Source: Poseidonia sp. (GTDB lineage: Archaea > Thermoplasmatota > Poseidoniia > Poseidoniales > Poseidoniaceae). Taken from it: a DNA stretch of 64,000 nt. The notes beneath the pieces were generated by a model. That model saw only the letters and a list, made by a program, of their open reading frames with translations. It was not told the DNA's origin and searched no databases. Of the stretch, positions 35,699 to 51,791 are shown piece after piece. The first letter of the stretch is position 1; every line of letters begins with the position of its first letter. The stretch lies in contig CBFIDD010000002.1 of the NCBI GenBank assembly GCA_965661285.1, forward strand, positions 288,001 to 352,000, written 5' to 3'. Made by a program: the position numbers and the translations under genes.

Positions 35699-36376
35699 AT
35701 GAGCCAGCGGGTTTGGTTGTACATCATGACCATCGCCGTTGGGCTGTGGATTTCTGCAACCGCTGCGGGAGGTCTTCTCCCTGATGCGCTGGCCGAATGG
35801 CCCGTGAACGTATGGTGCTGGGGCGTGTTTGCGTTTATTTTCAAAGGCGCCGACCAAAAGGAGCGCATTGAGATGGTCGCCGTCGTAGCGCTCGCAACGC
35901 CCATGGAACTGTTCTTCTCCGAGGTTTGGCTGGTCTACGAGTACCAACGCGAATTCATGCCGCTCTTTGTCCCAGCAGGCCACTATTTCCTCTTCGATCT
36001 GGGCCGGCGAGGAGCATCCCTGATGCGGGTTGAAATGGCCCTTCCGCTGCTCTTGCCCTTCGTCCCCCTCGTGGCCTACGGCGCATGGACGGGAGGTGAC
36101 ACCTCCGGGGTCGTCATGCTGCTCCTCGTCTTGGGATTCACCAAATGGGGACCCCAACCGCGACTGTATGCCGCCATGGCGTGGGCAGCCTTGGCCATGG
36201 AACTCTGGGGGACCTATCTCGGAAACTGGACGTGGGCCACCGACGTGCCTTGGACCAACTTGACAGCGTGGAATCCGCCACTCCTGGTGGGCGCCTTCTA
36301 CTGTTTTGGCGACCTCTTGGTTAACCTGTGCGTTGCTAAGTTTCAAGGGGAACCTACGTCCGAGGTTCTACCATGA
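35699..36376 (+). CDS. Hypothetical multi-pass membrane protein
   Basis: About six hydrophobic helices; ELWGTYLGNWTW...NPP motif. Confidence 0.75.
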   Translation: MSQRVWLYIMTIAVGLWISATAAGGLLPDALAEWPVNVWCWGVFAFIFKGADQKERIEMVAVVALATPMELFFSEVWLVYEYQREFMPLFVPAGHYFLFDLGRRGASLMRVEMALPLLLPFVPLVAYGAWTGGDTSGVVMLLLVLGFTKWGPQPRLYAAMAWAALAMELWGTYLGNWTWATDVPWTNLTAWNPPLLVGAFYCFGDLLVNLCVAKFQGEPTSEVLP

Positions 36377-36705
36377 CCGGCGCTGACGAGCTGCGCAAGC
36401 GCCGCGAGCAAGAGGCGCTTCGTATTCGTACGGCGCTGAACCGGCAGCGTGGCGAACAGCGTGCCAACACCAAGGGAGGCGAAGGAACCGTGGCCTTTGT
36501 TGAGGAACGCAAATGCATCGGTTGCGACCAGTGCACCATCGTCTGTGATGACGATGCGATTGAACTCTACTTCGTGGATGTCCGCAGCCCGCTGATGTCG
36601 GTGGAGAGCAACCGGAAGGCGAAGATCATTCGAGATGCGTGCACAGGATGCCGATTGTGTGTCCTCGCATGCCCAACCGATGCCATCACGATGATTGACC
36701 GATGA
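36373..36705 (+). CDS. 2x[4Fe-4S] ferredoxin-like protein
   Basis: CIGCDQCTIVC and CTGCRLCVLACP. Confidence 0.9.
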   Translation: MTGADELRKRREQEALRIRTALNRQRGEQRANTKGGEGTVAFVEERKCIGCDQCTIVCDDDAIELYFVDVRSPLMSVESNRKAKIIRDACTGCRLCVLACPTDAITMIDR

Positions 36706-36715
36706 GGTGAACCCC

Positions 36716-37003
36716 ATGTCAAAGAAAGGAAAAGATGCAACAGCCCAGCGATTTGGAGGCGAATTTGGCCCTTACAGGAAACCCGGCACGGAAGGCGTTT
36801 CGCTGTCGACCTTCAAGAACCTGGTATGGACTTCGAATATCGGAGGTTTGCTCCTCGTCGTGCTCGCTTTGGAACTGCTCTTTGTCCAGCAGCGATTCAT
36901 GTGGGGCTTCCTGTCCTTGGTCGCCGGTGTGGCCATCGCCCTGTTCCCGTCCAACTACGAAATCGTCGGGATGAGCGACGAGGACGAAGACGACGCATCG
37001 TGA
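36716..37003 (+). CDS. Small two-TM membrane protein
   Basis: SD-like GAGGTGA upstream of ATG 36716; two hydrophobic helices; acidic tail. Confidence 0.7.
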   Translation: MSKKGKDATAQRFGGEFGPYRKPGTEGVSLSTFKNLVWTSNIGGLLLVVLALELLFVQQRFMWGFLSLVAGVAIALFPSNYEIVGMSDEDEDDAS

Positions 37004-37018
37004 TGAGGCGTATCAATC

Positions 37019-37122
37019 GGTAGCGTCTGACAAGACCCACTGCAAGCCCTCTGATGAGGTCAAAACGAATCAGTGGGTTTGTGCATTGACCCTTTGATTC
37101 GTTAGTATAACCATTGAATCAG
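37019..37122 (-). repeat. Left copy of a 104-bp imperfect inverted repeat bounding the island
   Basis: Its reverse complement aligns without gaps to 40171-40274 at 84/104 identity (manual count). On the minus strand it begins 3 nt after the stop of the restriction gene. Confidence 0.92.
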
Positions 37123-37125
37123 CCT

Positions 37126-38313
37126 CTACTTTGCTTTTCGATCTGAATATGAACTCAACCATGCCTCATCAATCATTTCGTTAATCCAATATTTACTTCG
37201 TTTTATTATCGTCATGAGTTGCCTTCCATGTATTAACTTCAATGGATATCTTAGTTCATGAACCTCTTCTTGTGCTTGTTTTGAGAAAAATGAGGTGGTG
37301 ACATAAATCCCATATTCTCCTCTGTCGAGTCTTGCAACTAAGCGCGATAATTGAACGGGATTAATGTAGTTTGAACTGGCATACCTCTTCACCTCTCCTT
37401 TCAATTTAATCTCAAATCTGAATGGTTCATCAATCATCATTGAACCTATGAAATCAAATCCTCCGTCTCCACTATTCTTGGTTTTTTCTAGATTTTTGAA
37501 TAAAGTGCCTCCGACTTCAAGGAAAAGATCAACGATTATTTGTTCAAAGACATACGGGTTAATTTCATTCAAGCGTTCCAATGCCATCCATTCTGGAGAA
37601 TTGGTTGGTGGTAATTGATCTTCTTTTGTCAAAATTGAATCATTCCAAGCGGTAAGATATGAGTGGGCATTCCTTGATACGTATTCTCTCCAAGCAAGAG
37701 GAGATTTGTCCAGTCGGGAATCAAGTTCCTCATGCTTGCGCCAATTCGTCAACCAATCAATCGCAACCTGTGGGGTATTTAGAATTCGTAAAGTTGCTCT
37801 GTAATTCCTAACAGGTATGTCTCCATCCATGAACCACTCAACGTCTAATTTTTCTAGAATGCACAAACCGTTGAAGCGATTATATCCCGTTCTTTTTGTG
37901 AAATGGAGAATGAAGGAAGGTTGAGTTGAACCGTTGCGGAGGTTTTCATCGAGCGCCTTCAGTACTTTGTTTCCTTTGAAATCATCAAGAGACTTATCTG
38001 GGTCTGCAACTGAATCGCCCCAGTAATAAATTACACCATTGTGCTGGTCAACAATATCATCCCAAGGTTTAGGAGTATTCGTTTTACCTGAGTGAGTGAA
38101 CAAAAACACACCGTCAATTTGCTTCTTTCTTGATGAGTTTGGAGATTTCAATGCTCTAATGCCCCCTGCATTAGTCAACCCGGATTCAGGTAGGTTAACC
38201 CAACTCAGAAATTGGTCTTCCGGATCGTCTTTCCTTTTTGCGTCTCTGTACTCTTTGCCGACCTCAAAGAATTTCCCAGAGCCTGCTGTAATCCAGTTAT
38301 CTGAACCACTCAT
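37126..38313 (-). CDS. Modification-dependent (type IV) restriction endonuclease, AspBHI/MspJI-like SRA domain plus Mrr-type catalytic domain
   Basis: N-terminal PWDD..D..NGVIYYWGD, RFNGL and NYRATLRIL; C-terminal FE...DGGFD...EVKRY...SRLVARL..GIYVTTS (PD-(D/E)xK, Mrr-like). Confidence 0.82.
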   Translation of the reverse strand: MSGSDNWITAGSGKFFEVGKEYRDAKRKDDPEDQFLSWVNLPESGLTNAGGIRALKSPNSSRKKQIDGVFLFTHSGKTNTPKPWDDIVDQHNGVIYYWGDSVADPDKSLDDFKGNKVLKALDENLRNGSTQPSFILHFTKRTGYNRFNGLCILEKLDVEWFMDGDIPVRNYRATLRILNTPQVAIDWLTNWRKHEELDSRLDKSPLAWREYVSRNAHSYLTAWNDSILTKEDQLPPTNSPEWMALERLNEINPYVFEQIIVDLFLEVGGTLFKNLEKTKNSGDGGFDFIGSMMIDEPFRFEIKLKGEVKRYASSNYINPVQLSRLVARLDRGEYGIYVTTSFFSKQAQEEVHELRYPLKLIHGRQLMTIIKRSKYWINEMIDEAWLSSYSDRKAK

Positions 38314-38353
38314 GAATTCCCCTCAACTGTTGTGGTAATTGAAATTATCACAT

Positions 38354-38433
38354 TAATCAGAGGGTCACTCTGATTAGGCCTCAAAGCAGAGGGTACCCAC
38401 TGCTTACCCATCTGAGCAAAGGGCGCCCTCTGA
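38354..38433. repeat. Three tandem imperfect palindromes of the TCAGAGGG-N2-CCCTCTGA family, about 30-bp period
   Basis: TCAGAGGGTCACTCTGA (38357-38373), GCAGAGGGTACCCACTGC (38386-38403) and GCAAAGGGCGCCCTCTGA (38416-38433). TACCCACTGCTTACCCATCTGA resembles GACCCACTGCAAGCCCTCTGA in the terminal repeats. Confidence 0.8.
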
Positions 38434-38449
38434 AGAATAATTATCCAAC

Positions 38450-39100
38450 CTAGATCCAACCCTTAAGAATCGTGTGTATACCCGCTTTTAGTTCAACACT
38501 CATATCGAGGTTAAGAAACGTTAAGTCTGGGTGTTTAAGGGCAGATTTGGAAGGGCTTGAGGGGTTTGCCAGAGGATAAAGTCCCAAGGCGAAAGCCAAC
38601 ATCTGTCCAAATGCTTGAAGGGCATCTTCTAGTCTGGTAAAATGCCCGTTTCTCATTAATGCCTCTGCACCTCTCTGCATGAGTGAGAGTAGATTCAACT
38701 TATGTTCAATTAGCACTTCAACTGAAACCTCTCGTTCATACAATGCTGGAGTAAGTGAAAAAAGAGAAAGAAAGCGATATTCCTTGAGAAAGATTTTGGT
38801 GATGGCACTCGCAAACATATCTAAATCGCTTAATTCAAGTTTGGAATCTTCCTCTAATCCGAGAACTACGTCCTCAAAATCGCATAGATGAACATGAAGA
38901 AGCAACGATTGGATGTTCTCAAAATATCTGTAAATACCGCTCGGTGAAATTCCAACCGAGCTGGCAAGCGGACGCATTCGAAGATCCAGCGGGTCAGTTG
39001 TTTTGAGAAGCGTGCGGACGGCTTCAACAATCGCTCTTTTTCTGACTTCACGATGCTCAGTTGAACGAGCGCGTTGGAAGGGAATCTCTGGGCCAGTCAT
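38450..39100 (-). CDS. TetR/AcrR-family transcriptional regulator
   Basis: FQRARS..REVRKRAIVEA; HTH LASSVGISPSGIYRYFEN. Confidence 0.92.
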   Translation of the reverse strand: MTGPEIPFQRARSTEHREVRKRAIVEAVRTLLKTTDPLDLRMRPLASSVGISPSGIYRYFENIQSLLLHVHLCDFEDVVLGLEEDSKLELSDLDMFASAITKIFLKEYRFLSLFSLTPALYEREVSVEVLIEHKLNLLSLMQRGAEALMRNGHFTRLEDALQAFGQMLAFALGLYPLANPSSPSKSALKHPDLTFLNLDMSVELKAGIHTILKGWI

Positions 39101-39137
39101 GTGAATAACCCCTGCTCTGGGTGGAGGACACTTGAAC

Positions 39138-39160
39138 TTAACGGAACACTGTTTCGTTAA
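39138..39160. promoter_or_regulatory. Putative TetR operator overlapping a TATA-like box
   Basis: TTAACGGAACA-C-TGTTTCGTTAA (10/11-bp inverted repeat) between the divergent tetR and SDR genes, running into TTAAATATAT. Confidence 0.7.
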
Positions 39161-39190
39161 ATATATATGGAGGATTTGGTTCGGCGAATC

Positions 39191-40174
39191 ATGCCTCGTT
39201 CTCTCCGAATTGACCCAAGCCTTCGTAACATCGACCTCTCCGGAAAAAGATACGTCATCACCGGTGGCTCAAGCGGCTCAGGACAAGCCACGGTTGAATT
39301 CCTTGCAAAGCAGGGTGCCGAGGTGATCACCACGGGACGAGATCTGGCTCGTGGGCGTCAAAATTTTGAATCCCTACCGCTCGCTGTCCAGGGACGAATC
39401 ACACTCCTTCATCTTGATTTAGAAAACATGGAAAGTGTCGAAAAGTTTGCAGCTGAGGTAAACAAAAAGTGGCAGTCGTTTGATGCATTGGTCAACAATG
39501 CGGGAGGTGCCCTCACGAAAAACGGCACTTTCGAGCTAAACAGAAAAACATACGACAAACAATTTGTCGGCAACCATATAGGGGTATTCCACCTCAGTAA
39601 CTTACTTCTTCCCGGGCTTGAAGCCAATGATGGGGCTCGACTCATCAACGTCTCATCCGTCATGCACGACCAGGCGAAAGGTTTGCAGTCGACTCAGGCT
39701 CAGATACATTGGGATGACATCCATGCCCGCAAGCGCAAGTTCGATGGGTTTGACCAGTATGCTCAATCAAAACTCGCCAACCTCCTTCACGCAAAATCGC
39801 TGGCAAGGAAGTACGATAAAGACAACATTGCTGTTTTCCCCGTTCACCCAGGGACGATCAGCAAAGGCAGTCGTTTCGGCCGTTCGATGGGACCACTAAT
39901 GCGCGCAATGATGGTCCCTCTTAGCATCCTGATGGGACCTATCATGCGCCCCATCACGAAGGAAGACGGCGCTCAGACCACCCTCCACTGCCTGCTTTCC
40001 GAGGAAGCTCTGAACCACCACGGAGTGTATCACGCTCAAACCGGACTCAAACACAGCGACGGTGTTCGCGGGGGCTGGCCGTACCGGTCAGCCAATCCGT
40101 TGTCTCATGACGAAGCCGCTCAGGACCAATTGTGGAGCCTGAGTGAGGAACTTGTGGCAGAATTGAAAGCCTGA
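39191..40174 (+). CDS. Short-chain dehydrogenase/reductase (retinol dehydrogenase/WWOX-like)
   Basis: ITGGSSGSG, LVNNAG, NVSS, YAQSK and VHPG. Start is 39191 or 39167. Confidence 0.93.
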   Translation: MPRSLRIDPSLRNIDLSGKRYVITGGSSGSGQATVEFLAKQGAEVITTGRDLARGRQNFESLPLAVQGRITLLHLDLENMESVEKFAAEVNKKWQSFDALVNNAGGALTKNGTFELNRKTYDKQFVGNHIGVFHLSNLLLPGLEANDGARLINVSSVMHDQAKGLQSTQAQIHWDDIHARKRKFDGFDQYAQSKLANLLHAKSLARKYDKDNIAVFPVHPGTISKGSRFGRSMGPLMRAMMVPLSILMGPIMRPITKEDGAQTTLHCLLSEEALNHHGVYHAQTGLKHSDGVRGGWPYRSANPLSHDEAAQDQLWSLSEELVAELKA

Positions 40175-40274
40175 TTCAATCCACAATTCGTCGAATCATA
40201 GGGTCAAAGCACAAACTCACTGATTCGTTTTGACCCAATCAGAGGGCTTGCAGTGGGTCGAATCACTCGCTACC
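40171..40274 (+). repeat. Right copy of the 104-bp imperfect inverted repeat
   Basis: Begins at the SDR stop codon (cTGAttcaat); matches the reverse complement of 37019-37122. Confidence 0.92.
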
Positions 40275-40302
40275 CTGAGATTTGGCAACCCATCAGAGGG
40301 GC

Positions 40303-40320
40303 CCCTCTGAGTCGTCGCCG
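40303..40320. repeat. Perfect 18-bp palindrome TCAGAGGGGCCCCTCTGA
   Basis: Read directly; it lies 2 nt from the stop of the convergent cytochrome b subunit IV fusion gene. Confidence 0.85.
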
Positions 40321-40322
40321 TC

Positions 40323-43133
40323 TCAAGCTTCTGCGGTCTCGCCAACGGTCGTTTCGGCACCGAGTTGGGCCTTCTGCTCGTTGACTTGGCGAGCGAGGAA
40401 GGACACGACGTCGAGGATCTCGATGTCAGCATAGGCTTCGTCGCCCTCGAACTTGAGGCACTCAAAGTGAGAAACACACTTTGGGCAGGAGGTCAACATG
40501 GTCTCAGCACCGGTTGCACGGACTTCTTCCATGCGTGTGACACGCAGGGAGCGGGCGTTCTCGTTGCAGGACATCATGCTCGAAACACCGCAGCACATGG
40601 CGTCTTCACCGCTGTGCTCCATCTCAACAATCTCAACACCATCAACAGCGTTGATGAGGTCGCGAGGCTCGTCGTAAATGCCCATCTGTCGACCGAGGCG
40701 GCACGGGTCGTGGTAGGTGACGGTGGTGTCTTCGGTCTTGAGGTTCATGTCAAAGCCTTGCTCGGTCAGGTATTCCGTGGTGTGCATGACCTTCACGTTT
40801 TCAAGTTCGTAATCACGGGCAAAGGTTCGGAAACACTCAGCACAGGACGAGACCAAGGTGTCAATGCCAGATTCGTTGATCTTGCGCTGGTTGTACGCCT
40901 TGAGCTTCTCAAAGACTTCATCCAGACCTTGCCACTTTTGGTCGTGGCCGCAGCACTTCAGGAAGTCACGGCCGAGGTAGGCCACGTCGGTGCCCATCTC
41001 CTCAAACAGGGTGAAGGCAGCCGTGGTTGTATCACCAAGGTTCATCGTGCCTTCGTTGACGTGGGAGAAGACCATCTCCTGGTCAAGGTAGTCAACGCAT
41101 CCAGGGTAGTATCCGACGTTGGAGGTGATGGGGTAGTCTTCGGTGGCGATGAAATCGTCATCGGCCGCTTCCTCAGCCTCAGCGTTGAGCACCGCTTGAA
41201 GGACGGTGTGCGGAATTTCTGCCTGCGGGCCGCCAACGATAAGCGAACGACGGATGTCAACGTAGGAGTCATAGTTGACGAGTTGAGGACAGGCGTTGGT
41301 GCATGCGGTACAGGTCAAACAGGAATACAGCGGGACGCCGTCGTCTTCGTTGTTCCACGAATTGTAAATGATGTTCAGTTTGTCGCCACCGTTGAACAAG
41401 CGGACCGGACAGGCGTCGTCGCACAGGTCGCAGCCGTAGCACTTGTTCATCTCGAACTCGTAGCCACGAGCCATGTAGCGCAACAGCACGAAGACCAGCG
41501 CACCGAAGGTGATGCATGGAATGAACATGGCGTAGGTCAATTTTGCGTCAAGGGACTTGGGGTTTTGGTGGTAAGTAGGGTTCTCGATGTACGAGAACGC
41601 CGAACCGCCCAGGGCCATCTCTTCGCTGTTGGTAAGGTTGACCGTGTGGCCGGCCAATGCTGCAGGAGCGCTCTCATCCCACACGAGCAAGGGCTGGTAG
41701 GTTGCGATCCTCATCGAGGTTTGCGTCGTGATGCTGTTGTTGAGCGCCAGCGCCCCGCTGACCACGACATCGTAGGTGTAGTCGTAGGTGCCAACGGACA
41801 TTTCGACGGTTGCACCCTCGCAGTTGGCGAAGGAAACCACTTCGCTACCCGTGGCGTCGGTGACGGTCAGCATGGTAGCGACCATGGTTTGGGTTGACAC
41901 ATCGTTGATTTTCCGTTCGCTGGAGCGGAACTCACACGCAAGGTCGGTGGTCAAGGTGGTGACCTCTTCGGGGTGTCCCTCGGGGAAGAGCGTGGTGTCT
42001 TCAGTGATGGTAAACGAACCGCTCACGCTGAAGCCATCCCCACCGTTGAACGTGGTTCCAGCCGCCGCTGCGTTGATGCCGTTTTCGGCGTCTTGATGCC
42101 CGTTCGCATCGTTGAAATCCGTGATGATGTAGCGGGCTGGCTGGTAGATGTTCCAGTTCAACCATGCCGTGGTTGGAACCACGCCTGAGTCGGACCACCC
42201 GCGGTCGTCGGTGAATTCATTCACGTCGTGAACATGAACATCGGAAGGCTGCGTTCGCATGGCCTCCAATTCGCCATAGTCCTTGATGGTCAGCAAACCT
42301 TTCGCATCCCAAAACCCTTTGTCGTAGGTGTCGAAGGTGGCCACGGTAGCGGCGGACGAGAGGATAAGCGCGCCGACGATGAGTTGGCGACTCTTGGCGA
42401 CCGTGAACCCTGCACCCCAGGCGCGGATGAGCAATCCTCTGCCGATGAAATAAATACATATCCACATCAGGACGCCTGTCATCACCCACGGTATCGCATT
42501 GAAGACTTCGGCTATCCACGGCTCCCGAGTTCCACAGAGGAGGTCGCCGTGGGAATCGAGTTTACAGAAATCGGACCGATTTTTCCCGTACAATTCCAGG
42601 AAGATGTTGATGGAAAACACCGAGATGAACCAGATGTGCGCAAGATAGACGGCACCGGCAGCTGCGAACCAAGGGTCCTCAACGGGTCGCTTCTCACGGC
42701 CACCAAGGAAAGGTGGCAAAGCGAGAATGCCCACGGGGATGCCGGTCAGCGCAGCGCCCCACCATGCAGCGTTCCAAGGGAACATGGGCTGGCCGACGAT
42801 ATCGCCGACGAAACCGGTGGGGACCACAAACTGGGGCAAGTATTCGCCCCAGCGGAGATACCCGTAGGAGAACAACACGTACCAGTCGGGGAACACGAAA
42901 CCGGCCTGTGCATACGGGTCGGCTGCGCCGTGCAGTGGTGGAGGAATCAGCCAGGCATAGAAGAGGAGGATGGAGAGCATCGAGGCGAAAATGATGCTAT
43001 CACGCAGCACTTCGTGCGGCCAGAAACCGTGGCCGGTTCGGGTTCGCTTACGCTTTTCCTCTGCTTTTTGCAGTTGCTCTTTCTCCTCCATATACATGGA
43101 GGCGACGCGTCCAAAATTGTCAATCAGTCCCAT
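40323..43133 (-). CDS. Cytochrome b6f subunit IV-like domain fused to an HdrD/GlpC-like 2x[4Fe-4S] + 2xCCG oxidoreductase module
   Basis: N-terminal FWPHE...ADP...FPDWY (PEWY variant) and TM helices; C-terminal CYGCDLCDDACP, CLTCTACTNACP, YYPGC, CCG, SCAEC, YHDPCRLGR, CCG and SCPKC. Confidence 0.88.
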   Translation of the reverse strand: MGLIDNFGRVASMYMEEKEQLQKAEEKRKRTRTGHGFWPHEVLRDSIIFASMLSILLFYAWLIPPPLHGAADPYAQAGFVFPDWYVLFSYGYLRWGEYLPQFVVPTGFVGDIVGQPMFPWNAAWWGAALTGIPVGILALPPFLGGREKRPVEDPWFAAAGAVYLAHIWFISVFSINIFLELYGKNRSDFCKLDSHGDLLCGTREPWIAEVFNAIPWVMTGVLMWICIYFIGRGLLIRAWGAGFTVAKSRQLIVGALILSSAATVATFDTYDKGFWDAKGLLTIKDYGELEAMRTQPSDVHVHDVNEFTDDRGWSDSGVVPTTAWLNWNIYQPARYIITDFNDANGHQDAENGINAAAAGTTFNGGDGFSVSGSFTITEDTTLFPEGHPEEVTTLTTDLACEFRSSERKINDVSTQTMVATMLTVTDATGSEVVSFANCEGATVEMSVGTYDYTYDVVVSGALALNNSITTQTSMRIATYQPLLVWDESAPAALAGHTVNLTNSEEMALGGSAFSYIENPTYHQNPKSLDAKLTYAMFIPCITFGALVFVLLRYMARGYEFEMNKCYGCDLCDDACPVRLFNGGDKLNIIYNSWNNEDDGVPLYSCLTCTACTNACPQLVNYDSYVDIRRSLIVGGPQAEIPHTVLQAVLNAEAEEAADDDFIATEDYPITSNVGYYPGCVDYLDQEMVFSHVNEGTMNLGDTTTAAFTLFEEMGTDVAYLGRDFLKCCGHDQKWQGLDEVFEKLKAYNQRKINESGIDTLVSSCAECFRTFARDYELENVKVMHTTEYLTEQGFDMNLKTEDTTVTYHDPCRLGRQMGIYDEPRDLINAVDGVEIVEMEHSGEDAMCCGVSSMMSCNENARSLRVTRMEEVRATGAETMLTSCPKCVSHFECLKFEGDEAYADIEILDVVSFLARQVNEQKAQLGAETTVGETAEA

Positions 43134-51668: not shown

Positions 51669-51742
51669 GGGCCTGTAGCTCAGTCAGGTAGAGCGTCGGA
51701 CTTTTAATCCGATGGTCGCGGGTTCGAACCCCGTCGGGCCCG
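51669..51742 (+). tRNA. tRNA-Lys (anticodon TTT)
   Basis: Acceptor stem GGGCCTG/CGGGCCC, D-arm GCTCAGTCAGGTAGAGC, anticodon arm TCGGA-CTTTTAA-TCCGA, T-loop GGTTCGAACCC; no encoded CCA. Confidence 0.97.
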
Positions 51743-51791
51743 CCTGATTGGTCTGCCGGCGCGGTGTGGGTGGGCGATCCGGGGAGTAAAA

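Follow-up and report, generated by a model that had tools for sequence, protein, structure and literature searches.

The Poseidoniales (Marine Group II) are uncultured archaea with streamlined genomes that rank among the most abundant archaea of the surface ocean, and to our knowledge little has been established about how their flexible genes move. The locus considered here lies in a 64,000-nt stretch of Poseidonia sp. DNA (assembly GCA_965661285.1, contig CBFIDD010000002.1, positions 288,001 to 352,000 of the forward strand), hereafter the window, to which coordinates refer unless another contig is named. At 37021–40272 the window holds a two-cassette islet, with a restriction endonuclease gene in one cassette and genes for a TetR-family regulator and a short-chain dehydrogenase (SDR) in the other, situated between two convergent core genes. 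The islet is bounded by inverted copies of a repeat, named rep, and a second conserved motif of ~50 nt is named tail. Genomes are designated by G numbers, G000 being the window's own genome (1.98 Mb, 93% complete), and loci by L numbers. As judged from the comparisons below, the islet probably belongs to a Poseidoniales-wide, site-specific cassette system that is non-autonomous and is acted upon in trans. The rep family appears to be undescribed so far, and full-text literature searching yielded no description of these repeats.

Several described systems share part of this organisation. Integron cassettes, including those of sedentary chromosomal integrons, in which the attC repeats closely resemble one another, are likewise small and promoter-poor, with one structured site of ~60–140 nt per cassette in which the stop codon often lies; they also form arrays of direct sites, are shared from host to host and are served in trans by an enzyme acting on clusters that lack it. 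They differ in that rep ends at TA without GTTRRRY, is dispersed over hotspots rather than confined to one platform, occurs in mixed orientation with reps pointing outward, and is accompanied by a tail motif and by a candidate enzyme that is a serine, not a tyrosine, recombinase. Tn4451 and Tn5397 (with TnpX and TndX) and IS607 are mobile elements of the serine-recombinase class; they are excised in circular form, and each of their ends bears a 2-bp crossover dinucleotide. Here, too, both junctions show the same dinucleotide, of which the empty site and the end-to-end joint have one copy each, the sites have dyad symmetry and no long target duplication is seen, whereas most of the units lack a recombinase, their ends are composite and ~100 bp long, and the candidate protein is small (~262 aa). 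The pdif modules of Acinetobacter plasmids, thought to be moved by XerC/D at sites of ~28 bp with a 6–8-bp spacer, are similarly recombinase-less, bounded by inverted dyad sites and shuffled between replicons, but rep is four times longer, has a 2-bp centre, occupies chromosomal hotspots in an archaeon and shows no evident link to Xer. Miniature inverted-repeat transposable elements (MITEs) and mobile insertion cassettes, such as IS630/Tc1-mariner derivatives and Correia elements, share TA ends, long inverted ends, the lack of an internal transposase and an intergenic position beside gene ends; unlike them, the units described here have no matching transposase in 60 genomes, include single-end forms and use a specific palindromic target. 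Finally, repetitive extragenic palindromic (REP) sequences and REPINs with their RAYT enzyme are low-copy, vertically persistent palindromic repeats, often in inverted pairs and dependent on an enzyme in trans; in contrast to these, G000 encodes no Y1 transposase, genes lie between the repeats, and the copies per genome are far fewer (1–12).

The islet and its junctions

The left rep (37023–37122, minus strand) has its outer end toward the core gene and its inner end, GAATCAG, toward the cargo, and the right rep (40171–40272, plus strand) ends in the TA at 40271–72. As proposed in an earlier sequence-only reading of this DNA, the reverse complement of 37019–37122 aligns without gaps to 40171–40274 at 84/104 identity; an inverted-repeat search returned arms of 83 nt at 37019–37101 and 40192–40274 (88% complementary). 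The 104-nt match is sound, but the true outer ends of the repeats are the TA dinucleotides at 37021–22 and 40271–72. Half of the mismatches (10/20) cluster at 40181–40191 within the TGATTC-N15-GAATCA dyad, again as described earlier, and five more of the 20 fall in a second variable stretch at 40260–40267 that had gone unremarked. R1, a sequence-only covariance model built from 25 copies, matches 37012–37122 with 107.5 bits and 40171–40282 with 95.8 bits, and the variable terminal hairpin is of the GTCT/AGAC type in the left copy and of the CGA/TCG type in the right copy. The repeats are not due to chance, because the repeat model recovers both window copies from the 1.98-Mb genome at E-values of 1e-27 to 1e-31, together with a single weak third copy outside the window.

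The first cassette carries the restriction endonuclease gene (37126–38313, minus strand; Pfam AspBHI_N and Mrr_cat, E 1.4e-24 and 9.7e-15), the stop codon of which lies 3 nt from the inner end of the left copy at 37122. The second carries the TetR-family regulator gene (38450–39100, minus strand; TetR_C_34 and TetR_N) and the SDR gene (39167–40174, plus strand; adh_short, E 4.6e-29), which ends on the TGA in CTGATTC, the opening bases of the right copy and part of its first arm; the close apposition of stop codons and repeats claimed for both genes is thus borne out. Between the cassettes, a central junction (38355–38432) comprises hairpins at 38358–38377 and 38417–38432 and the dyad CAGAGGG-TA-CCCACTG at 38387–38402. 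The latter corresponds to the short third copy that had been noted 3' of tetR, which is real (38384–38415) and consists of the CAGAGGG...CCCTCTG stem of the repeat with a loop of 13 nt and the central TA at 38394–95. Two of the three such hairpins of G000 are in the window island. The AT-richness ascribed to the cargo applies to the endonuclease and tetR (GC 0.36–0.44 over 37050–38850, against 0.55–0.60 in the flanks) but not to the SDR gene, which is near 0.5. No recombinase is linked to the islet in the window, as had been stated. A tRNA-fragment attachment site was rejected, as no tRNA lies near the islet and the sole tRNA of the window, tRNA-Lys (TTT) at 51669–51744, is unrelated. Identity with the Charybdis elements of Poseidoniales was also rejected, these being, as far as the accessible text of their description goes, integrase-bearing elements that integrate near tRNAs and are unrelated to rep (10.1101/2025.08.03.668216).

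The left core gene (36695–37003, plus strand) encodes 102 aa without a Pfam family and faces the right core gene (40323–43133, minus strand), which encodes a 936-aa protein with CCG and 4Fe-4S domains. A search with the left-flank DNA found it in 54 of the 59 other genomes of the genus. Among the 29 best relatives' loci inspected out of those with the left flank, the two genes converge at a distance of ~3–125 nt in 12, an unrelated insert of ~470 nt separates them in six, and three contain other inserts of 0.6–1.3 kb, one of which (G014) is accompanied by a right repeat and a truncated left one; a repeat followed by the contig end is seen in three, four end or diverge and are uninformative, and one is masked. 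Reps also bracket this site in G003, but there they enclose other cargo, with genes for a TSP3-repeat protein, for an aldo-keto reductase and for a TetR unlike that of the window. Empty sites and swapped cargo, as the sequence-only reading would have of a cassette locus, thus both occur here. By this comparison across species, the segment between the TA at 37021–22 and the TA at 40271–72 is an insertion between two convergent core genes. The unrelated ~470-nt inserts of six relatives at the window's hotspot (L058, L060, L068, L075, L082 and L084) are homologous to one another, and no repeat was detected with them.

The junctions of this insertion follow a pattern centred on TA. The left flank contains a half-site (37004–37022) ending in the TA at 37021–22, with a dyad match, CAATCGG-TA-GCGTCTG, from 37014. 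The homologous left flank (...CATCAGAC) continues into a rep end in G014 and into a palindrome in G005, the empty site of which reads ...CATCAGACCG-TA-CGGTCCGATG, followed by the tail hairpin, with a single TA at the centre of the palindrome (CAGACCG-TA-CGGTCCG). On the other side, the sequence after the window's right TA is homologous to DNA abutting the same core gene in G005. This stretch, the remainder of a resident tail on the target side and outside the insertion (40273–40322), comprises a half-palindrome and the hairpin CAGAGGGGCCCCTCTG at 40294–40309, and its homologue abuts the core gene in G005, which has no island, as well as in G067 and G003; as 40273–40320 is also present in relatives without the island, it is assigned to the resident flank. 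The outer end of rep is TA in 75 of 82 distinct copies, the remainder being three gapped copies and four others. The ten bases before the TA fall into three main types, TGTCATAGCC, TGTCAGACGC and AATCACTCGC, each self-complementary with the bases just upstream, and the TA is followed by CC[C/G][T/A]NTG..., with an agreement of 70, 62, 73 and 71 of the 75 copies at the first four positions and of 57 and 60 at the last two. Three kinds of junction around one TA can accordingly be distinguished on sequence grounds, dyad-dyad (empty), dyad-repeat (occupied) and repeat-repeat, and this grammar would fit a crossover at the central dinucleotide of dyad sites.

A degenerate form of the dyad occurs only six times in the 1.98 Mb of G000. 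Four of these occurrences are accounted for by the left and central junctions of the islet, a repeat remnant that precedes TFIIB, and the recombinase island described below; a fifth is another repeat remnant. The pattern is present at least once inside eight of 14 islets with reps in the '-/+' order (26.5 kb in total). A genome-wide REP-like motif was considered and dropped, CAGAGGG not being enriched in G000 (rank 4618 of 8247 7-mers).

Distribution of rep and exchange of modules

BLAST searches detected the repeat in 19 of 24 relatives from the genus. With R1, 52 of the 59 other genomes of the genus were positive (E≤1e-3; up to 7 copies each), as were 84 of 151 genomes of the order (E≤1e-5; 18/22 genera, up to 12 copies per genome; 59/74, 24/74 and 0/2 genomes by family). 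Rep is therefore a dispersed family rather than a set of local terminators, with copies recurring beside variable genes in the window's own genome and in Poseidoniales metagenome-assembled genomes (MAGs), in line with the searches that the sequence-only reading had outlined. A 17-mer scan gave matches in Poseidonia, Poseidoniaceae and Poseidoniales MAGs, and scattered bacterial matches in about the number expected by chance, save for two contigs labelled as a Salipiger MAG (L214 and L186). These contain full reps, but carriage by bacteria was rejected: the DNA is 88–94% identical to Poseidonia cassette DNA and probably represents mis-binned archaeal sequence. Viral carriage was also rejected; among viral contigs, an exact 21-mer had no match (0) and a degenerate 18-mer matched four contigs, none of which was confirmed by R1.

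A Pfam scan of ~250 neighbouring open reading frames (ORFs) at ~50 loci showed that the outer neighbours of rep are housekeeping genes and that the same sites recur across species, forming at least 10 recurrent hotspots. These include thermosome/ADH/CTP synthase, NFACT/thiolase, M28 peptidase, PhoX/RimK, TFIIB, squalene synthase (SQS)/MetH, aconitase, enolase and the window's own site. The inner cargo varies and comprises many small ORFs without known function, LlaJI and AspBHI-type restriction genes with a D12 methylase, HNH and GIY-YIG nucleases, an AIPR protein, pentapeptide proteins, an aldo-keto reductase with HxlR, TetR regulators, and DUF285 and TSP3 surface proteins; neither a DDE nor a Y1 transposase was found among these ~250 ORFs. 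Many rep copies are at contig ends. Degenerate remnants were also observed in G000 upstream of TFIIB (C4:68800-68835), downstream of PhoX (C3 ~186400-186900), near C1:472215 (C1:472200-472235) and beside TruD (C2:247485-247586), and rep sites appear to decay in place at hotspots.

All-against-all BLASTN of the loci and pairwise alignments identified modules in common between different hotspots and species. These include L036/L101 (511 nt, 95%), L047/L100 (515 nt, 93%), L038/L109 (935 nt, 87.5%), L019/L108 (424 nt, 90%) and L042/L051 (1808 nt, 92.5%), the last of which carries a TSP3 gene and occupies the TFIIB hotspot in one species and the window's hotspot in the other. The homology is limited on one side by the outer end of rep (...CTACCC) and on the other by the tail motif, which consists of GGG-TA-CGGTCTGATGACCCGTC, four bases and a CAGAGGG-N-CCCTCTG hairpin. 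Each such unit holds one rep and one tail, with the gene between them in either orientation. The cassette-like mobility suggested earlier thus gains support from the recurrence of the same modules at other hotspots.

Metagenome contigs from four runs of four studies were placed on 36000–41300; as these contigs are unitig-like, their depths are approximate. They break at 37030–37076, 38384–38419 and 40238–40247, and the dyad at 38387–38402 coincides exactly with the central break zone. The TetR-SDR segment forms one contig of ~1.85 kb (38384/38416 to 40238/40247; 0–2 differences), and the endonuclease is on a separate contig (37076 to about 38419) in all four metagenomes. The depth of the TetR-SDR segment was 131.8, 148.5, 90.1 and 22.4, compared with 11.1, 8.0, about 6 and about 3 for the endonuclease and 24.8 and 6.2 for the left core flank, and many alternative continuations were seen at the rep edges, including another terminal-hairpin type after 40257. 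The consistently 5–20 times greater depth of TetR-SDR relative to its flanks suggests that this module also resides in genomes with other flanks. Among the other species representatives of the genus, TetR-SDR had only relatives of 69–71% identity, in 4/59 and with no rep alongside, suggesting that its carriers beyond the window genome are not among these representatives.

The relation of rep to adjacent genes was assessed for the 42 distinct copies with a complete inner end, using ORFs of at least 60 codons. A co-oriented ORF ends within 22 nt of 20 of these copies, in nine cases on the TGA of the repeat itself, and in ~9 a divergent gene starts 37–70 nt inside. Attachment of rep to gene 3' ends, as inferred earlier from the two window copies, is thus a tendency but not a rule, since shared modules carry the gene either way. 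Four of the divergent genes encode lipoproteins alike only in their signal peptide (MRKDQIFVLLL..LSGC) and upstream DNA. In these loci (L036:10624-11061, L043:2251-2961, L048:56-592 and L095:6575-7111), the gene starts 37–39 nt from the inner end of rep, and ~230 nt comprising repeat, leader and signal peptide are common to them, a pattern suggestive of a constant module for expression and export to which exchangeable protein bodies are joined. This recurrent rep-adjacent gene had been considered as a hidden transposase, a candidacy rejected because it is a variable lipoprotein family.

The ending of module homology within conserved repeats could also arise if rep and tail had no dedicated mobility and were functional intergenic elements (terminators, promoters or RNA hairpins) providing the homology for gene swapping. 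This explanation, which we regard as unlikely, would accommodate the 20 of 42 copies adjoining a gene 3' end, the 37–39-nt spacing between the inner end of rep and the lipoprotein genes that share a signal peptide, the persistence of degenerate remnants at hotspots and some covariation in the hairpins. Homologous recombination cannot, however, explain the arrival of rep at naive sites with no more than 3 nt between the core genes, and the varying orientation of genes relative to rep and the series of TA/dyad junctions (target, hybrid and rep-rep) are not expected from it. A 3'-untranslated-region or terminator reading was dropped because of this same variation in orientation. With regard to RNA, the RNAalifold consensus is weak (nine pairs, no compensatory change), as is covariation in a second structure, and an Rfam scan of 36500–40800 in E-value mode gave four weak matches, none at the repeats, so that an RNA element was rejected. 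In stem tests, the first hairpin together with the CCCACTGATT/AATCAGAGGG stem outperformed shuffled sequences (1–3 of 500), whereas alternative stems did not (42–352 of 500).

Adjacent copies less than 5 kb apart, tallied by hand from the genus and order model listings, comprise 16 pairs in the '-/+' order, with inner ends toward the cargo as in the window, and 18 in direct order. The '+/-' order is limited to three junctions (L232, L234 and L188), at which the outer ends abut with one TA in common. Pairs in '-/+' order flanking cargo, and the nested '- - + +' orders that also occur, are what a non-autonomous cut-and-paste transposon would produce, that is, a MITE-like or mobile insertion cassette-like element with terminal inverted repeats of ~100 bp and a TA duplication of the IS630/Tc1-mariner kind, mobilised by a DDE transposase encoded elsewhere. 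Terminal inverted repeats are indeed found, as is TA at each end against one TA in the empty site, and the islets have no internal transposase. Such a transposon is nevertheless improbable, given that no cognate DDE transposase was found (DDE_3, PF13358, in 0/60 genomes of the genus; rve, PF00665, and DDE_Tnp_1, PF01609, absent from G000), that the units common to different loci have one rep and a tail instead of two inverted ends, that direct arrays are as frequent as inverted pairs, and that the two ends of an islet usually differ in terminal-hairpin type.

A candidate serine recombinase

Pfam profile searches of G000 recovered one Phage_integrase gene (361 aa, XerA-like) and one Resolvase-family gene, with no Y1_Tnp (PF01797) and no TnpB over the cut-off. 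The Resolvase-family gene encodes a serine recombinase of ~262 aa with a Resolvase domain and the start of a Recombinase domain, found in 9 of 60 genomes of the genus and 21 of 151 of the order. Rep was detected in 19 of the 21 genomes with this recombinase, against 65 of the 130 without it. The gene is located at islet edges in the same hotspots (PhoX, M28, TFIIB and RimK), with restriction-modification cargo, and reps are within 7 kb of it on nine contigs. In G052 and G084, which belong to different genera, the ~290 nt upstream of the recombinase are conserved; TA-GCGAG forms their exact start, and they can be aligned to rep as far as the shared C-TA-C. In G000 and G149, a half-dyad, TA and a stretch resembling rep come before the gene. 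In G084, a partial rep(-) and a diverged rep(+) bound an islet that contains the recombinase along with three other genes, and beyond it come two cassettes, each with rep(+) at its end. A recombinase gene inside the element beside one end is thus seen in a minority of cases (G052, G084, G000, G149 and G053), and the window islet has none. Together, these sequence data make the ~262-aa serine recombinase the best candidate for the enzyme of cassette movement, an assignment to which we would give a little less than even confidence.

Further features of these islands were observed. In G000, the sole serine recombinase edges a type I restriction-modification island (L133, C3:265590-274500) with two HsdS and an HsdR with Schlafen/AlbA_2; the half-dyad, TA and rep-like stretch are ~150 nt upstream of the recombinase and a TA-centred dyad is 1.35 kb downstream (C3:267894), and a matching right end for this island was not found. 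A recombinase clade represented by L130–L132 and L247 (37–41% identical) has its own upstream sequence with a GTATGGCCGACCATAT dyad, is flush with core genes, carries restriction-modification cargo and probably forms an integrative island family of its own at the same hotspots.

A different enzyme would be at work if the host's single XerA-type tyrosine recombinase acted on the TA-centred dyads, as proposed for XerC/D on pdif modules. Exactly one integrase gene is present in G000, the enzyme is ubiquitous and also occurs where no serine recombinase is found, the sites are dyad-symmetric and the modules are flanked by inverted sites; such a dif-like arrangement is nonetheless quite improbable, since no link between integrase and rep was seen, the integrase being on another contig with no R1 match in its locus (L112), and since a 2-bp centre with a conserved arm of ~100 bp contrasts with the much shorter dif-type sites and their wider spacers; nor did anything here evidently resemble a chromosomal dif. 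The association with a tyrosine recombinase or Y1 transposase that the sequence-only reading had put forward for scrutiny was not seen in G000 on either count. Its remark that the repeats do not obviously match the integron or pdif consensus holds, as there are no attC cores and rep is far longer than a dif-type site. A true integron-type system, with rep as a folded single-stranded attC-like site used by an integron integrase, would suit the cassette-like layout, the stop codons often inside the first bases of the site, the nested dyads with compensatory changes in the first hairpin (TGATGA/TCATCA and TGATTA/TAATCA) and the report of integrons in Archaea (10.1101/2022.02.06.479319), but is very improbable in view of the lack of GTTRRRY/RYYYAAC cores at rep ends (the only GTT triplets of the consensus read GTTATTC and GTTTTGA, and its outer end is ...SSC-TA-CCC), the mixed orientations at many loci in place of one array beside intI, the absence of an IntI-type integrase among the ~250 neighbouring ORFs, the single G000 tyrosine recombinase lying beside no rep, and 0 occurrences of Poseidoniales or Thermoplasmatota in the main text, as distinct from the supplementary tables, of that report.

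A possible mechanism and its significance

In the mechanism that we propose, a cassette would consist of a ~50-nt tail (half-palindrome ACCCGTC and CAGAGGG-N-CCCTCTG hairpin), one or a few genes, and a ~100-nt rep ending in ...SSS-TA, and would move as a unit, probably as a circle with a rep-TA-tail joint. Recombination would take place at the central TA of a 16–22-bp dyad, with a consensus of about ATCAGASSS-TA-SSSTCTGAT, in either orientation and by an enzyme acting in trans. TA would remain at both junctions; the one next to rep would be a hybrid site, and the one next to the tail an intact dyad, able to serve as the next landing pad. As the dyad would be rebuilt on the tail side, new cassettes would be added at the centre of the islet, with reps outward in the '-...+' order. 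Such a scheme would account for the single-rep units, the tails meeting mid-islet, the outward reps and the rarity of '+/-' junctions, and for the order in the window of rep(-), endonuclease, central dyad, TetR/SDR, rep(+) and resident tail. The full proposal, in which a small serine recombinase inserts circular single-site cassettes at a rebuilt palindromic TA pad so that islets grow centrally, without an integron, is offered tentatively. The circular intermediates, the crossover at TA, the identity of the enzyme and movement itself are all inferred, whereas the repeat family, the insertion, the sharing of modules, the TA/dyad grammar and the co-location with the recombinase are supported directly.

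Several observations weigh against this proposal. Neither an excision product nor a circle nor any recombination event was observed; two metagenome contig joints that skip the first cassette (37097 to 38368 and 37101 to 38387) and one opposite-strand joint were discounted as evidence of excision, the sides of the former being 21–31 nt long and possibly representing cross-matches between repeats. The recombinase is sporadic, that of G000 is on another contig beside a type I restriction-modification system, and its co-occurrence with rep is confounded by phylogeny and MAG quality. Recombinase-adjacent ends score weakly in R1 (13.6, 9.9, 6.5 and 6 bits), the conserved site upstream of the gene in the clade of L130–L132 and L247 is another one that lacks the rep motif, and the recombinase could be mere cargo of flexible islets. 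The dyad pattern is absent inside six of the 14 '-/+' islets. The TA duplication is drawn from cross-species comparison at one hotspot and three shared-TA junctions rather than from an isogenic pair, the bases conserved after TA might be part of the element instead of the target, and module endpoints within conserved repeats are also expected from homologous recombination.

The best reading remains that of a system of cassettes, or else of a non-autonomous element, with mobilisation in trans, as the sequence-only reading had inferred; the modules recur and no recombinase is linked to the islet in the window. That interpretation is right in essence and wrong in detail: the dispersed family, the empty sites and the exchange of cargo support it, while the TA termini, the palindromic target, the tail motif and the link to a serine recombinase had been missed.

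For the Poseidoniales, rep provides a searchable boundary site of ~110 nt that marks the entry points of accessory genes, the cargo so marked including restriction and abortive-infection genes, regulator-enzyme pairs and variable lipoproteins, and rep sites account for the breaks of MAG contigs at such places. The rep/dyad DNA and the ~262-aa serine recombinase form a pair that is open to biochemistry without cultivation. If the proposed mechanism holds, it would represent a second, independent solution to cassette capture beside the integron, and the compact recombinase-site pair might serve as a tool. Made of unrelated components, the system would in that case be to these archaea, the most abundant in the plankton, what the integron is elsewhere, and genes for defence, regulators and surface lipoproteins would pass between their genera at a dozen fixed chromosomal hotspots.

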